Assembly: GCF_053078305.1 (NCBI RefSeq)
Contig: NZ_CP166879.1
Length of the DNA stretch: 64,000 nt
Direction: 5' to 3' (one strand)
Shown here piece after piece: positions 1,166 through 11,881 of this stretch. The translations under genes and the position numbers were made by a program. Every line of letters starts with the position of its first letter. Position 1 is the stretch's first letter. Under the pieces are notes generated by a model. That model saw nothing but the letters and a program-made list of their open reading frames with translations. It was not told the origin of the DNA and did not search any database.

Positions 1166-2644
1166 TTACGCATTCGACCAGCTCTGGATCGAATCCGCAT
1201 TCCCCAATTCCCCATGCATCACTTCATACGATTTTTTCAGAATCACATCAGTGTGTTTGGTTAAATCTTTGAAAATGCCTTTATTCATCGCGTCGTAGCG
1301 TTTGGCATTGCTCTCAACAGGCATAAAGATATCTTTCACGCGAACCATTTTATCGACAGCCGTTGCGTAATCCGGGTATAGCCCCAGACCTACCGCTGTA
1401 TTAATCGCTGCCCCCAGGCTTGCACAACCGTTAATGGCATTACGTCGTGCCGGAAGGTTGAACACGTCGGCAAAAATCTGCATAAACAGATCGCTGTTCG
1501 AACCGCCGCCAGTAATGATTACATGCTTCGCAAAGTGATTCATTTCATTACACATATTGTCGTAATTGTTCTTCAGCGTCAGCGCCACGCTTTCCAGTAT
1601 CGAACGATATATCCATGCGTAATCCATGCTGGAATCAAAGCCGATCATAATCCCACGTTTGTAGGGTTCCCACGGGTTGGTCAGCCAGTCCAGCACCGTC
1701 ATCAGACCATTACAGCCAGGCGGCACACAAGAAGCTTTTTTGTTGAGCAAATCTTCCGGTGAAAGATCCTGTGCTTTGGCATCCTGAATTAACGACTCGC
1801 CTAACATGTCGCGTAGCCAGCTCACCGTCCACATGCCTTTACGGATACCGTACCCTTCATACAGCAATGTTTCCGGAATAGAAGACATAATCGGCCAGTA
1901 CGCCACCGGATCTTTCGGCAGTGCTTTACCGTTCATCATCAGCGCGATGTAGGTGCCAAGAGAAATCACCGCCGTTTCATCATCCAGTAATCCGGCTCCC
2001 AGAGCTTCTACCGGTTTATCACTGGTGGTACAAACAACCGGCAGCCCTGACGGGAAATGTGTCGCCAGCGCGGCTTGAGGTGTGATCTGTCCAAGAACAG
2101 TGCCTGGCATTTGCACATCAAACAGCATATGACGGGGGATATTAAACTTCTCCATTACCGCAGCATCTTCGCTCCATGCCCAGCTCTTATAATCCACCGG
2201 CCACTGACCAAAATAGTTGGCGATATTGTCTTTAAACTCGCCGGTTAAGCGATGCGTCAGATAACCCGAAAAAGAGGTGACATATGCCACGTCAGGATTA
2301 GTGTGTTCGTAGGGACGCGTTACGCGTGCATCCTGCCAGCTAATCAACGGCGCAGCAGGCGTGCCATCGGCTTTCAATAACGCACGGCAGCAACGGATGG
2401 ATCCCAGACCAATACCGACAATATCTTCTTTATTCCCGGCAAACTGACTCATCAAATCGTGACCGGCAAAACATAATGATGCCCATAAATCGTCGTCAGG
2501 ATGTTCTGCAGTATCGGCATCTGGCGTGTGCATCGGCTGCAATAAACCTTTGCCTTCGCAAACCACGTTACCTTCCAGATCGTATATCACCACTTTTGTG
2601 CTCTGACTTCCGCCATCAATCCCTATGATGTATTTTTTCGACAT
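1166..2644 (-). CDS. ygcE: FGGY-family carbohydrate kinase
   Basis: 492-aa ORF; N-terminal IGIDGGSQSTK sugar-kinase motif; position next to CRISPR2 as in K-12. Confidence 0.85.
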   Translation of the reverse strand: MSKKYIIGIDGGSQSTKVVIYDLEGNVVCEGKGLLQPMHTPDADTAEHPDDDLWASLCFAGHDLMSQFAGNKEDIVGIGLGSIRCCRALLKADGTPAAPLISWQDARVTRPYEHTNPDVAYVTSFSGYLTHRLTGEFKDNIANYFGQWPVDYKSWAWSEDAAVMEKFNIPRHMLFDVQMPGTVLGQITPQAALATHFPSGLPVVCTTSDKPVEALGAGLLDDETAVISLGTYIALMMNGKALPKDPVAYWPIMSSIPETLLYEGYGIRKGMWTVSWLRDMLGESLIQDAKAQDLSPEDLLNKKASCVPPGCNGLMTVLDWLTNPWEPYKRGIMIGFDSSMDYAWIYRSILESVALTLKNNYDNMCNEMNHFAKHVIITGGGSNSDLFMQIFADVFNLPARRNAINGCASLGAAINTAVGLGLYPDYATAVDKMVRVKDIFMPVESNAKRYDAMNKGIFKDLTKHTDVILKKSYEVMHGELGNADSIQSWSNA

Positions 2645-2670
2645 GATTTTTCTCCTGTAATTTTCCTGGC

Positions 2671-3948
2671 TTACTTGCTGCTAGCCATTGCGGGGGCGCT
2701 ATCAGCAGTACGAATTTTTTGGAACAGCAAAAAGGTAAAGACGATCACCATGCCGAGTGCCGCCATGCCCATCAGCCACATGTTGCGGTAGGCTTCTGCT
2801 GCGGGCAGGGTGTCCTGCCAGTGGCCGATAATCGGGTAAACGAAGACATCCGGCAGGAATCCAATCACCGAACAAATACCTACCGTGGTGCCCATAATGT
2901 AAGACGGTGTTCTCGCTTCGCCAGGGCAGGCCCAGTACAGCCCGCGTGAGGCGTAACAGGTGAATCCCAGCAGTAAAATCAGGCCAATCCCCATCGCGAC
3001 CGATTGCGGGTTAGAGTTGGTAACAAGCAGGGCAGTCAGTGCCAGCAGGCCGATGATGGAAAGGATTTGAATCACGCGGGTAGGGGATTTCACTTTACTG
3101 TAGGTGGTGATAATGCCGCCAAGTGGGCCGCACAGCGCGCGGAATATTTTGTTGATCACAATCCCCATGTAGCTCGCCGCCACCAGCGACATGCCATACA
3201 TTTCGGTCAGATAGTTGGTGGAGTAACTCAGAATGGCGTAGATGGTGAAGACACCAAAAATCACCATGCTGCAATACCAGGTGGTGCTGATGCGCAAAAC
3301 GGCCAGGATGTCGCTAAGCTGGAATGATTGTTTATCTTCGTTATTGGCACTGCGCAGGTTGTTGTTATCGCTAACAAAAAACCAGCACAGAATCCCCAAC
3401 AAGATGTAAACCACACTATAGATGATAATGACCGTTTTCAGGCTGGCGCTGTCATCCGGTGCAAAGCGAGAAAAGACCCACATGGTAAACACCGCCAGCG
3501 ACATTACACCGACGCCGCGCAGCCCTTCCATCCAGCCCATAATTTTCCCTTGCTCGCTATGATCGCCAAGCAACGATGCGGCTTTAATCGACACCGACCA
3601 CAGCATTAAAATCGTTGTTATCGCAAAGGCGACCTGAATACAGAGCATTACCCACAGCGGTGGATATGTTGCCATTAACAGACCCAGTAATCCGGTAATG
3701 ATCATCGCGGAAGTAATCATTTTGCGGTGTGAAAATTTATCGGCAATAACGCCGCTGGGGGCATAAAGAATAATAGCTGCAATACCAAAGGTACTCATTA
3801 TTAAACCTATCTCGGTATTGCTGAATCCCATAAATTTCGCCATGGGAATTTGATAAATATAACGTAAATAAGCCAGGTCAAAACTAACGCCGCCGCTAAA
3901 ACTAATTATCGCGAGGGTTATCCAACGGCGATATGAGTTGTGTTGCAT
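2671..3948 (-). CDS. yqcE: MFS transporter
   Basis: 425-aa ORF, hydrophobic multi-helix protein; synteny. Confidence 0.8.
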   Translation of the reverse strand: MQHNSYRRWITLAIISFSGGVSFDLAYLRYIYQIPMAKFMGFSNTEIGLIMSTFGIAAIILYAPSGVIADKFSHRKMITSAMIITGLLGLLMATYPPLWVMLCIQVAFAITTILMLWSVSIKAASLLGDHSEQGKIMGWMEGLRGVGVMSLAVFTMWVFSRFAPDDSASLKTVIIIYSVVYILLGILCWFFVSDNNNLRSANNEDKQSFQLSDILAVLRISTTWYCSMVIFGVFTIYAILSYSTNYLTEMYGMSLVAASYMGIVINKIFRALCGPLGGIITTYSKVKSPTRVIQILSIIGLLALTALLVTNSNPQSVAMGIGLILLLGFTCYASRGLYWACPGEARTPSYIMGTTVGICSVIGFLPDVFVYPIIGHWQDTLPAAEAYRNMWLMGMAALGMVIVFTFLLFQKIRTADSAPAMASSK

Positions 3949-10342: not shown

Positions 10343-10358
10343 AAATTATCCTTATTAT

Positions 10359-10619
10359 TTATCCAAAGCGGTAGGTGATGCCGAATCCGGAAGGTGGATA
10401 GCGCCACTGTTGTAGTGTTGATTCGTCGCACAGCAAACGGCAGGTGCCACACTCAAGGCAACCGCGATAATCAACACGCAAGTCGCCTTCCGGCGTGAGC
10501 GCAAAAAGACCTGCCGGGCAGGCGTTAATTAATCGTTCTGCCGTCTGGCGCTCAACGGAGTCAGCCGGAACAATATGCGGCGCATCAGCAGCGCGCCAGA
10601 GATTACGGGCTACAGACAT
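10359..10619 (-). CDS. ygcO: FixX-like ferredoxin
   Basis: 86 aa from the internal ATG; Cys-rich (CLECGTCRLLC) ferredoxin-like motif; overlaps ygcN end. Confidence 0.75.
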   Translation of the reverse strand: MSVARNLWRAADAPHIVPADSVERQTAERLINACPAGLFALTPEGDLRVDYRGCLECGTCRLLCDESTLQQWRYPPSGFGITYRFG

Positions 10620-11881
10620 CGAACACTCCTGATAACATCGCCCGCCAGATTCCACAAGCCATGACGACGTAAATGACGCCAGAGTAACTGGCGCAGCGGT
10701 GGAACAGGTTTATCACCCTGATCCCATAAATCGCGGGAAATATCCTGCATTAACGCAGGCCACGTACGGTACCATCCCGGGCGTTGCAAAAGCGCCGGAA
10801 CATGCTGATAACGCTGTAGAACTTCCCACAGCAGGCTGCGCTCTACGTTGTGATGATAAAGCGGAAACAGATTTTGCGGCTCGCGGTGCTGGCAGGCGCT
10901 TATCAGTGTTTGTGCCGCCGCCTGCGCGCCAGTTAGCGCCGTATCCATGCCGCGCACAGAAATTCCGGTATTGACGCAACTGCGCAACGCATCGCCCACC
11001 AGCAGCCAGCCGTTACCGGCGTATTGTACCGGCATACTGTGCAAGCCACCTTCTGGCACCAGATGCGCACCATACTCCAGTGATTCCGTGTTTTTGATAA
11101 GCGGGCGCACTGCCGGATGCGTTTTAAAGCGAGCAAGCAGCTCGCTTGCCGGAACACGACTTTGCGTAAGGGAAGAGAGTGGGCAAACAATCCCTAACGA
11201 GAGCGTTTGTTGATTAGTATAAAGAAATGCGCCGCCGGGTAAGTCATCACAGATTCCGCCGCTGAACAGCAACGCTGCGCCTTCGTTATTCTCCAGATGA
11301 AAACGTTCTTCAATAGCGGATGTTTCCAGCGACAGCACTTCTTTGATCCCCAACGCCATCGCTTCGCCAGCAGGACGAGTCACTAACCCGTGACGTTCAG
11401 CCAGGACGCTGTTGGCACCTTCTGCCAGCACCACATAACGGGCGCGGAGAATATCGTCACCACAAATGACACCACACACCCTGCCGTTTTCTTCATACAG
11501 TGCATCCACCGTCGCACCAGGGATGCATTCGACACCTTCTTTTTCGGCTTCGGCAACCAGCCACGGATCGAACCGTGCACGTAATACACTCCAGGATTCA
11601 CCGCCGGGCTGTAAGCTGGAAAACGTCGTTGCGCAATCCGGCGTTAACAGGGAAAGGCTTTCGTGAGTGATGCGTCGTTCAAGAGGCGCGGTCAGATGAA
11701 ATTGAGGGAGGAGTTCCGCGAGTGCATGGGTATATAACCGCCCGCCGGAAAGATTTTTGCTGCCGGGGATTTCAGCGCGTTCCAGTAACAAAACGGATAA
11801 ACCCGCTCGCGCGCAGCGTAACGCGCAAGCGGTGCCTGCAATACCGGCACCAATAATAATAATGTCGCAGTCGTCTTCCAT
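10610..11881 (-). CDS. ygcN: FixC-like FAD-dependent oxidoreductase (ETF-quinone oxidoreductase-like)
   Basis: N-terminal dinucleotide-binding motif DIIIIGAGIAG; 423 aa from the internal ATG. Confidence 0.85.
   Translation of the reverse strand: MEDDCDIIIIGAGIAGTACALRCARAGLSVLLLERAEIPGSKNLSGGRLYTHALAELLPQFHLTAPLERRITHESLSLLTPDCATTFSSLQPGGESWSVLRARFDPWLVAEAEKEGVECIPGATVDALYEENGRVCGVICGDDILRARYVVLAEGANSVLAERHGLVTRPAGEAMALGIKEVLSLETSAIEERFHLENNEGAALLFSGGICDDLPGGAFLYTNQQTLSLGIVCPLSSLTQSRVPASELLARFKTHPAVRPLIKNTESLEYGAHLVPEGGLHSMPVQYAGNGWLLVGDALRSCVNTGISVRGMDTALTGAQAAAQTLISACQHREPQNLFPLYHHNVERSLLWEVLQRYQHVPALLQRPGWYRTWPALMQDISRDLWDQGDKPVPPLRQLLWRHLRRHGLWNLAGDVIRSVRCL

Follow-up and report, generated by a model that had tools for sequence, protein, structure and literature searches.

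The ygc cluster of Escherichia coli is probably a catabolic regulon that is switched on by transcription antitermination of the GlpP type. In the window analyzed here, a stretch of 64,000 nucleotides from an E. coli-type chromosome, its ten genes occupy positions 1166-11881, from the stop codon of ygcE to the start codon of ygcN, and the divergent spacer between yqcE and ygcW carries two conserved leader RNAs with covarying terminator and antiterminator helices. Both are predicted targets of YgcP, a protein of the GlpP family (PF04309) encoded in the same cluster. An earlier note on this DNA had guessed at antitermination control on the RNA level and had proposed to search for a terminator/antiterminator leader RNA upstream of the operons; such leaders indeed exist, in two copies. 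With these matched leaders the yqcE-ygcE and the ygcW-led operons appear to be built for co-regulation. We found no previous description of a GlpP-type antitermination switch in E. coli or other Gram-negative bacteria.

Two leader RNAs in the yqcE-ygcW spacer

The 318-bp divergent spacer between yqcE and ygcW (3949-4266) contains two paralogous promoter-leader modules of 150 nt, which can be aligned with each other from the CRP site to the ATG. Each presents, in this order, TGTGA-N6-TCACA, an extended -10 element, the sequence C-A(G/A)TTAC(C/T)-AGAGA-N2-3-TGAGAAA(G/A)GTAA and the remaining hairpin with its T run. The following features were located:

3973-4041, minus strand: yqcE leader; 5' strand AAUUACU at 4035-4029, purine loop AGAGACCUGAGAAA, partner AGUAAU at 4014-4009, hairpin 4020-3981, U8 at 3980-3973
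4172-4242, plus strand: ygcW leader; 5' strand AGUUACC at 4178-4184, loop AGAGAUAAUGAGAAA, partner GGUAACU at 4200-4206, 19-bp terminator hairpin 4194-4235, U9 at 4236-4244
4070-4085: CRP-like site TGTGAgagtaaTCACG (minus-strand reading CGTGAttactcTCACA), 9 of 10 core bases, centre at 4077.5, 41.5 bp upstream of the predicted yqcE start
4127-4142: CRP-like site TGTGAttacgaTCACA, 10 of 10 core bases, centre at 4134.5, 41.5 bp upstream of the predicted ygcW start
4043-4051, minus strand: predicted extended -10 element TGtTATTTC of the yqcE promoter; -10 box 4048-4043, predicted start at about 4036-4034
4161-4169, plus strand: predicted extended -10 element TGcTAAAAA of the ygcW promoter; -10 box 4164-4169, predicted start at about 4176-4178

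Both leaders share the 5'-terminal element AGUUACY - AGAGA-N3-4-GAGAAA - RGUAACU, which is followed by a strong intrinsic terminator close before the start codon. The terminator of the ygcW leader (4194-4244) is the strongest terminator-like site of the region and lies 22 nt upstream of the ygcW ATG (4267); the yqcE leader ends 24 nt before the yqcE ATG (3948). For the 101-nt leader regions, whose folds the terminator hairpins dominate, energies are -42.3 kcal/mol in the case of ygcW (z -7.0) and -27.3 kcal/mol in that of yqcE (z -4.1). The nascent 5' fragment of the ygcW leader folds into a 7-bp antiterminator at -6.7 kcal/mol. Such a weak 5' hairpin (-1.4 to -6.7 kcal/mol in the two leaders, against -27 to -42 kcal/mol for the leader regions) is expected of a protein-dependent antiterminator.

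The CRP sites are centred at a distance that corresponds to class II geometry, and both promoters are therefore predicted to be CRP-dependent promoters of this class. The arrangement is conserved: in 87 of 93 distinct upstream regions a CRP site scoring 8-10 of 10 lies 42-44 nt from the leader anchor, the position of the yqcE -10 element relative to CRP site and leader element is kept across the 93 regions, and the -10 box is found 6-8 nt upstream of the leader element in all lineages. The predicted starts would place AGUUACC and AAUUACU at the extreme 5' ends of the respective RNAs. Our findings are in line with PhyloScan, which ranked the yqcE-ygcW spacer among the top predicted CRP targets (PMC1794230). 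Furthermore, RNA polymerase sigma70 holoenzyme and H-NS both bind this spacer in genomic SELEX (PMC3946193), and the latter means that the cluster may be silenced under laboratory conditions.

Conservation and covariation of the leader element

A YgcP-seeded scan with one genome per species yielded 64 loci. The covariance model, built from 92 distinct leader sequences, gave 101 strong matches, with two in essentially every enterobacterial locus that includes the yqcE-ygcW spacer, and there always within this spacer; in the window the ygcW and yqcE leaders scored 80.9 and 76.5 bits, respectively (E ~2e-12 for the latter). Ygc units headed by the element occur in about 60 species from the Enterobacterales, Vibrionaceae, Bacilli and Clostridia, including Vibrio, Photobacterium, Listeria, Bacillus, Thalassobacillus, Clostridium, Anaeromicrobium and Fodinisporobacter. 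When metagenomes were searched for the motif first, 19 word matches were obtained, 14 of which were also covariance-model matches; all 14 lay beside ygc core genes. The other five, which had neither ygc genes nor a covariance-model match, were discarded as chance.

Both helices are preserved by compensatory changes in the 93 distinct sequences. In the terminator helix 88% of cells are paired, changes on both sides occur at 10 of 19 pairs, and covariation amounts to 0.261 compared with 0.195 upon shuffling (a value of 0.261 was reached in 0 of 500 shuffles) and at most 0.111 for slid pairings. For the antiterminator helix, which is outside the structure used for the covariance model, 93.7% of cells are paired compared with 87.8% upon shuffling (0 of 500) and at most 54% for slid pairings. 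Compensatory changes affect three of its seven pairs (8-38, GC 66 and AU 25; 13-33, UA 65 and CG 23; 11-35, AU 91 and GC 1) and include a switch from A-U to G-C that occurred separately in one enterobacterial locus and in Listeria/Bacillus. All one-sided changes are A to G and thus wobble-compatible, and none at pairs 9-37 and 10-36 is disruptive. Covariation of column 33 is seen with each of its two possible partners. In the terminator, column 38 forms a mismatch in 61 of the 93 sequences, yet in the antiterminator it pairs and covaries. These two patterns argue for two mutually exclusive RNA structures.

The inverted repeat AGTTACY...RGTAACT could also be read as DNA. Together with the GA box it would then serve as an operator, overlapping +1, for a DNA-binding repressor, the hairpins would attenuate or insulate constitutively, and YgcP, with its phosphate-binding barrel, would be an isomerase or aldolase of the pathway. 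Symmetric covariation would be equally produced by a palindromic operator, the element does overlap the predicted transcription start, H-NS binds the spacer, and the cluster has no obvious isomerase or aldolase of its own. On the other hand, no DNA-binding regulator is kept with the cluster across phyla, leaving YgcP as the sole conserved non-enzymatic candidate; one-sided helix changes are exclusively of the wobble-compatible type (UA to UG); the same columns covary with the 3' arm of the terminator in a three-way pattern; and the layout is that of the B. subtilis glpD leader, for which GlpP-dependent antitermination has been established experimentally. We regard an operator as distinctly unlikely.

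Within the 64-kb window no third leader copy was detected, neither upstream of ygcN/ygcP or ygcS nor elsewhere. A pattern match at 36904 is not matched by the covariance model and was rejected, and reverse-strand model matches on the hairpins (~25-35 bits) reflect hairpin palindromy and not additional elements. Two local deviations were seen among the loci. In Limnobaculum eriocheiris (L033, 13882-13955) the yqcE-ygcW spacer has collapsed to about 130 nt with a single palindromic terminator flanked by A/T runs; the AGTTACY/AGAGA part is lost, and the element looks degenerate or differently regulated. In Citrobacter youngae (L011, ~16320-16470) and Klebsiella spallanzanii (L012, ~12666-12816) an insert of about 130 nt (starting ...AAAATAATTCGAGTTGCAGGAAGGCGGCAAGTTAA) separates the yqcE leader terminator from the yqcE start and may be a small repeat element (ERIC/IRU-like).

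YgcP and the proposed switch

YgcP possesses a complete G3P_antiterm domain: PF04309 covers residues 12-184 of 191 (model positions 1-173 of 173, E 1.6e-62), and the protein matches PDB 3kts (1e-27). Of all proteins of the cluster it is conserved best, with 96-97% identity between Escherichia and Citrobacter. The leaders have the properties of GlpP targets, with intrinsic terminators 22-24 nt upstream of the ygcW and yqcE start codons, a 7-bp helix that overlaps the terminator, and the GAGA-N3-4-GAG core found in the three canonical leaders compared. GlpP-regulated promoters have been described as consisting of -35/-10, a GlpP site and an inherent terminator, with the GlpP-dependent 5' untranslated region of B. 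subtilis glpD as an example (PMC9604022). The glpD leader indeed follows the same plan, with GGUC as the upstream strand, the loop CUGAGAUGAGGAGA and GACC opening the terminator. In the canonical glycerol systems of Faecalibacterium and Lachnoclostridium (L065, L066), weak matches to our model, with the GAGA-N3-4-GAG core at the start of the terminator, lie between glpP and a gene for a glycerol 3-phosphate (G3P) oxidase or GlpA-like G3P dehydrogenase. On account of the shared layout and GA core we count the ygc leaders among the putative targets of GlpP-type proteins.

An Rfam scan of positions 1-13000 (E up to 1) returned nothing at the leaders, with weak REP/naRNA4 and spurious small nucleolar RNA matches as the only results. 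This lack of a family, together with the 5'-terminal position of the element and its conservation in sequence and structure, would suit unclassified ligand-sensing riboswitches, or leaders under the control of some other RNA-binding factor (Hfq/sRNA, CsrA, Rho) without involvement of YgcP. We consider this highly improbable, as the part preceding the terminator comprises only about 30 nt with one 7-bp helix and is too simple for a metabolite aptamer, as the full element is found only beside clusters that contain ygcP, and as its GA core is common to the leaders of canonical GlpP regulons.

In the proposed YgcP-dependent switch, two back-to-back class II CRP-dependent promoters would fire outwards from the spacer, and each transcript would start almost exactly at a conserved leader of about 70 nt. 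Without inducer, the leader would form the strong terminator 20-25 nt before the start codon and a short RNA, predicted to be about 65-70 nt long, would be the only product. Alternatively, AGUUACY at the RNA 5' end would pair with RGUAACU of the terminator 5' arm, giving the weak 7-bp hairpin with AGAGA-N3-4-GAGAAA in its loop. By analogy with GlpP and glycerol 3-phosphate, we infer that YgcP charged with a phosphorylated pathway intermediate binds this hairpin or the GA box. Binding would keep the 5' arm from the 3' arm, resulting in read-through into yqcE-ygcE and ygcW-ygcU-ygcS-ygcR-ygcQ. The effector is presumably not G3P, because the cluster lacks glpF, glpK and glpD and instead has an invariant short-chain dehydrogenase/reductase (SDR) and, in other lineages, betaine-type transporters; this context favours another phosphorylated ligand.

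Several points tell against this switch. The 7-bp helix of the yqcE leader (-1.4 kcal/mol) folds no better than shuffled sequences, independent compensatory events for the antiterminator are few (about four), and the same covariation would result from a DNA palindrome recognized by a protein. The loci were gathered through YgcP, so that co-occurrence of leader and regulator arises partly by construction, and the motif-first scan removes only part of this. In some strains the cluster may be silenced or in decay, as H-NS binding and a frameshift in ygcR (see below) suggest. Finally, two further points bear on the substrate: the E. coli cluster is equipped with major facilitator superfamily (MFS) carriers and lacks BCCT or OpuA transporters, so that our substrate inference is transferred from other phyla, and a dedicated electron transfer flavoprotein (ETF) oddly accompanies an enzyme whose relatives catalyze redox-neutral chemistry.

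Core and accessory genes

The ygc region of the window is 97.5% identical to that of MG1655 and 98.6-99.1% identical to those of the best-matching complete E. coli genomes. Genes were placed by combining the listing of open reading frames (ORFs), tblastn with K-12 proteins, and the RefSeq annotation of MG1655 and of the best E. coli match, all of which agree with the position between the CRISPR array (1 to ~530) and queD (11959-12324, minus strand) given in the earlier note. Nine of the ten genes are intact, the exception being ygcR. In gene order (ygcE and yqcE on the minus strand, ygcW to ygcQ on the plus strand, ygcP to ygcN on the minus strand), the genes and two intergenic elements are:

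1166-2644, minus strand: ygcE, FGGY-family kinase, 492 aa, second gene of the yqcE-ygcE operon, 98% identical to K-12 YgcE
2671-3948, minus strand: yqcE, MFS transporter, 425 aa, 98.6% identical to K-12 YqcE
4267-5052, plus strand: ygcW, SDR oxidoreductase, 261 aa, similar to KduD and gluconate 5-dehydrogenase
5122-6576, plus strand: ygcU, FAD-linked enzyme, 484 aa, similar to alkyl-dihydroxyacetone phosphate synthase
6618-6639, plus strand: GC-rich hairpin CGGCTTCTCaggcGAGAAGCCG in the 93-nt ygcU-ygcS spacer, from the terminator scan, 9 bp, weak T tract
6670-8007, plus strand: ygcS, MFS transporter, 445 aa, 99% identical to K-12 YgcS
7985-8762, plus strand: ygcR, ETF beta-like, pseudogene in the window
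8759-9619, plus strand: ygcQ, ETF alpha-like, 286 aa
9667-9740: REP-like palindromic element between the convergent ygcQ and ygcP; weak Rfam naRNA4 match of 32.8 bits (minus strand) and 24.3 bits (plus strand), both below the gathering score
9767-10342, minus strand: ygcP, putative RNA-binding antiterminator of the GlpP family (PF04309), 191 aa, 100% identical to K-12
10359-10619, minus strand: ygcO, FixX-like ferredoxin, 86 aa, NF011993 (FixX) 84 bits
10610-11881, minus strand: ygcN, FixC-like FAD oxidoreductase, 423 aa, putative ETF:quinone oxidoreductase, full-length matches to NF007450 (385 bits) and NF007542 (FixC, 365 bits)

The hairpin between ygcU and ygcS does not match the leader covariance model; its role could be that of an internal terminator with partial effect or of a processing or stability element. 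At the left end of the window the CRISPR array comprises about nine repeats GAGTTCCCCGCGCCAGCGGGGATAAACCG and is followed by an AT-rich, leader-like stretch (540 to ~1000), two to three degenerate repeat copies (~1000-1120) and a GC-rich hairpin (1133-1160) abutting the ygcE stop codon.

All family labels of the earlier note stood up to NCBIfam and Pfam (FGGY kinase, two MFS transporters, SDR, FAD_binding_4 oxidase, ETF beta and alpha, FixC-like, FixX-like and G3P_antiterm proteins); ygcR, which it lists for ETF beta, is not intact in the window, however. None of the ygc proteins reaches the cut-off of a curated NCBIfam equivalog model. In agreement with the note's statement that the cluster is uncharacterized, searches by gene name and on GlpP leaders in the literature collection consulted revealed neither a published function nor a description of the leaders. 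For ygcU, an induction by D-serine of only 1.69-fold has been reported, with no phenotype upon deletion. Mentions of "ygcO" in a review on the nitrogen-related phosphotransferase system (PTS-Ntr) are misspellings of ycgO and were discarded.

The cluster is not a chance juxtaposition, its core being syntenic in about 60 other species. YgcP, the SDR YgcW, the FGGY kinase YgcE, YgcU and a transporter constitute the invariant set across all loci, whereas the ETF and FixCX-like genes are accessory and fast-evolving. ygcRQ and ygcNO are absent from the clusters of the Serratia/Pantoea/Erwinia group and of Listeria, which keep ygcU, and identity between Escherichia and Citrobacter is only 59-78% for YgcN, YgcO, YgcQ and YgcR compared with 95-97% for YgcW and 92-94% for YgcU. 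An obligatory tie of the ETF module to a partner dehydrogenase is thus not observed. Where present, ygcR-ygcQ follow ygcU, either directly or, in Escherichia-like clusters, with ygcS inserted. Clusters from clostridia, Bacillus and Photobacterium contain an additional GlcD/LctD-like oxidase together with canonical, sometimes ferredoxin-fused Etf proteins. In clusters of the Serratia/Pantoea type, e.g. in Serratia quinivorans (L043, 4338-9896), ygcS resides outside the ygcW operon and heads an operon with genes for a formaldehyde-activating-enzyme-like protein, an aldo-keto reductase and a succinate-semialdehyde-type dehydrogenase, next to a divergent gene for a GcvA-like LysR regulator.

The FixABCX-like module emphasized in the earlier note therefore exists as far as gene families are concerned but is dispensable. 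Intact K-12 YgcR matches PF01012 (2.4e-16), YgcQ matches PF00766 (2.3e-17) and PF01012 and attains 63-76 bits with the NCBIfam ETF alpha models, and YgcN and YgcO match FixC/PRK10015 and FixX at the family level with scores below the curated cut-offs. In the window ygcR has suffered a 2-bp deletion after 8404 and nearby substitutions, resulting in ORFs 7979-8482 and 8376-8762, so that the module is not intact. An 81-nt ygcR segment at the frameshift had no match at 99% identity or above in 4922 complete E. coli genomes; it represents a pseudogene confined to this lineage or else a sequencing error.

One may ask whether the E. coli cluster is merely a decaying relic silenced by H-NS, with leaders that are conserved by recent common descent only. 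The frameshift in ygcR, another in ygcS of strain A16 and the binding of H-NS to the spacer would all be expected of a relic, as would the distribution among complete E. coli genomes: 5060 of 5426 (~93%) contain the cluster at a coverage of at least 80%, and about 7% lack most of it. We judge this extremely improbable in view of the strong purifying selection on YgcP, YgcW and YgcU that is apparent from the identities given above, of leaders kept with compensatory changes from Enterobacterales to Firmicutes, and of the intactness of all core genes in the window.

Enzymes and the substrate question

YgcU was described in the earlier note as an FAD-linked oxidase. Membership in the FAD_binding_4 family is correct, but assignment as a generic GlcD-type dehydrogenase is not: the GlcD model TIGR00387 scores 141 bits with a cut-off of 568, and EHGxG is absent. 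Instead, VHHHGIG is found at the position of the HHH loop of alkyl-dihydroxyacetone phosphate synthase (AGPS), which we take to correspond to the EHGxG motif of D-2-hydroxyacid dehydrogenases. The best PDB matches of YgcU are AGPS (4bby, 5e-40) and 2uuu, ahead of glycolate oxidase, LctD (3.8e-22), D-lactate dehydrogenase and D-2-hydroxyglutarate dehydrogenase. R262, the tyrosine of NGTNMYFVY and HHH438-440 of YgcU align with R419, Y578 and H615-617 of AGPS, residues with catalytic roles in that enzyme; the entry for the AGPS variant Y578F (4bca) differs exactly at the aligned tyrosine. These residues are conserved in all YgcU orthologues examined (six genera), whereas the second oxidases mentioned above lack them. 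Full-length AGPS comprises ~580-660 residues with an N-terminal domain and a long hydrophobic substrate tunnel. With 484 residues and an alignment that starts at AGPS 215 and YgcU 60, YgcU lacks the N-terminal part and is AGPS-like rather than an AGPS.

Other enzymes likewise fall short of named functions. YgcW stays just under the KduD cut-offs (NF005390, 350.1 bits versus 369; TIGR01832, 275.6 versus 338.85) and is 76-78% identical to its orthologues in Listeria and Clostridium clusters. KduD and gluconate 5-dehydrogenase enzymes oxidize a -CHOH-CH2OH terminus. YgcE, for which LsrK and glycerol kinases are the best PDB matches, reaches the cut-off of none of the models for GlpK, XylB, LsrK, AraB, FucK, RhaB or GntK (XylB 143 bits versus 380, LsrK 140, GlpK 102 versus 590).

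The transporters bear on the kind of substrate. Outside the Enterobacterales and Listeria loci, all eight clusters inspected contain a betaine-type transporter, which is a BCCT protein in six lineages (Bacillus sp. DNRA2, Thalassobacillus, Vibrio hannami, Clostridium sediminicola, Photobacterium gaetbulicola and Anaeromicrobium sediminis) and an OpuAC-type ABC system in two (Fodinisporobacter and one further genome). In Anaeromicrobium one BCCT gene even has a leader element of its own. In E. coli, YqcE has weak matches only, to MFS families of the anion:cation symporter type (NCBIfam); its gene adjoins ygcE in Enterobacterales, Listeria and Vibrio. YgcS matches aromatic-acid, sugar-porter and organic-cation MFS families. 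It is NiaP-like, and its over-expression led to higher production of nicotinamide mononucleotide (PMC8601175); being an over-expression effect only, this was not accepted as a physiological assignment.

The polyol or sugar-acid-like substrate proposed in the earlier note is probably too generic. BCCT and OpuA transporters in other phyla point to a compound of the quaternary-ammonium or betaine type that bears a glycerol-like diol, which is our most economical guess. 2,3-Dihydroxypropane-1-sulfonate (DHPS), which E. coli excretes, was rejected along with plain polyols (erythritol, threitol) and 2-hydroxy acids, since each leaves the association with BCCT/OpuA unexplained. Two associations were each seen in a single genome, a GH2 beta-galactosidase gene directly 3' of ygcP in Clostridium sediminicola (L068, 10883-13999) and a SurE-type phosphatase gene within the cluster at locus L091 (17721-18536); they might hint at a glycosylated or phosphorylated head group.

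The parallel with glycerol catabolism is one to one, i.e. transporter, FGGY kinase, flavin dehydrogenase and GlpP homologue, and the cluster could accordingly be imagined as a second route for glycerol or G3P, with YgcP sensing G3P, YgcE as a glycerol kinase paralogue and YgcU as a GlpD substitute that feeds the ETF. Glycerol kinases among the best structural matches of YgcE and AGPS-like residues suited to a ligand of the dihydroxyacetone phosphate (DHAP)/G3P type fit this picture. Such a route is nevertheless very unlikely: YgcE is far below the GlpK cut-off, glycerol catabolism has no place for an invariant SDR with 76-78% identity across phyla, transporters of the MFS, BCCT or OpuA type are present but never GlpF, and Firmicutes with a ygc-type cluster are expected to carry their own glp genes too.

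For the quaternary-ammonium type of substrate favoured here, we infer the following order of steps. The imported compound would be oxidized at -CHOH-CH2OH by the KduD-like SDR and/or phosphorylated by YgcE, and AGPS-like YgcU would act next at a DHAP/G3P-like moiety. Where the accessory genes are present, electrons would be passed via YgcRQ (ETF) and YgcN/YgcO (FixCX-like) to quinone. A more daring version, which is unlikely, is that the regulon degrades a glycerol-linked quaternary-ammonium compound by a reversal of ether-lipid biosynthetic chemistry. Candidates would be glyceryl-trimethylhomoserine (the head group left when betaine lipids are deacylated), glycerophosphocholine or a (2,3-dihydroxypropyl)-onium compound. 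SDR and FGGY kinase would turn X-CH2-CHOH-CH2OH into 1-X-dihydroxyacetone phosphate, and YgcU would break the C1-X bond via a flavin N5 adduct and release DHAP, the phosphorylated intermediate being the effector of YgcP. If true, this would be a new catabolic strategy for cleaving C-O or C-N bonds and the first physiological role for bacterial AGPS homologues, possibly with relevance for choline and trimethylamine-type metabolism in the gut.

Significance

Ten genes of E. coli K-12 without known function gain a concrete, testable regulatory mechanism. Identification of the inducer is the usual bottleneck in assigning orphan catabolic clusters, and the conserved leader can be used directly as a reporter or sensor for the missing inducer, which makes the system worth following up at the bench. 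That canonical glp leaders have the same GAGA-N3-4-GAG core hints at a rule of recognition valid throughout the PF04309 family. Furthermore, in view of the AGPS residues of YgcU and the betaine-type transporters of eight lineages, the substrate should be sought not among sugars but among betaine- or choline-like compounds that bear glycerol; this class is relevant to carbon and nitrogen cycling in gut and sea.

Comparison with known systems

The closest relative of the proposed switch is the GlpP regulon of B. subtilis (glpD, glpFK, glpTQ). Common features are a PF04309 regulator, promoter-proximal intrinsic terminators in the 5' untranslated region, a short upstream strand followed by the GAGA-N3-4-GAG purine box and the start of the terminator 5' arm, and a gene set encoding transporter, FGGY kinase and flavin dehydrogenase. 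The ygc system differs by its Gram-negative host, its predicted class II CRP-dependent promoters in a divergent, duplicated arrangement, a 7-bp helix (AGUUACY:RGUAACU) in place of GGUC:GACC, and the presence of a KduD-like SDR, AGPS-like YgcU, a dedicated ETF and, outside E. coli, betaine-type transporters. With the ribonucleic antiterminators of BglG, SacY and LicT the ygc leaders would share the principle of a weak 5' hairpin that overlaps the 5' arm of a terminator and is stabilized by a ligand-controlled protein to switch on a catabolic operon; the RNA sequence is a different one, and the protein is a PF04309 barrel and not a CAT-PRD protein under the control of PTS phosphorylation.

The four-gene logic of YgcR (ETF beta), YgcQ (ETF alpha), YgcN and YgcO is that of the cai-linked FixABCX and of YdiQRST in E. 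coli, and the fix genes likewise serve a quaternary-ammonium pathway, that of carnitine. Unlike these systems, the ygc genes are distributed over two strands, their ETF subunits have diverged strongly (43-76 bits versus cut-offs of at least 240), the partner is a flavoenzyme of the vanillyl-alcohol oxidase (VAO) type and not an acyl-CoA dehydrogenase, and the module is dispensable in many lineages and broken in the window. LctBCD from Acetobacterium woodii (PDB 7qh2) also combines an FAD_binding_4 dehydrogenase with adjacent EtfB and EtfA. YgcU is set apart by the HHH loop of AGPS, and in enterobacteria electrons are predicted to reach quinone via YgcN/O and not NAD+ and ferredoxin. From AGPS/ADPS itself YgcU differs by the lack of the N-terminal ~200 residues, as a cytoplasmic bacterial protein, and by its location beside a dedicated ETF in a catabolic regulon with no lipid-handling genes nearby. 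In the erythritol pathway of Brucella, an FGGY-type kinase (EryA) is likewise followed by FAD-dependent oxidation of a phosphorylated polyol (EryB); there, EryB is GlpD-like and not VAO/AGPS-like, control is exerted by the repressor EryD, isomerases are dedicated to the pathway, and betaine-type transporters are absent.

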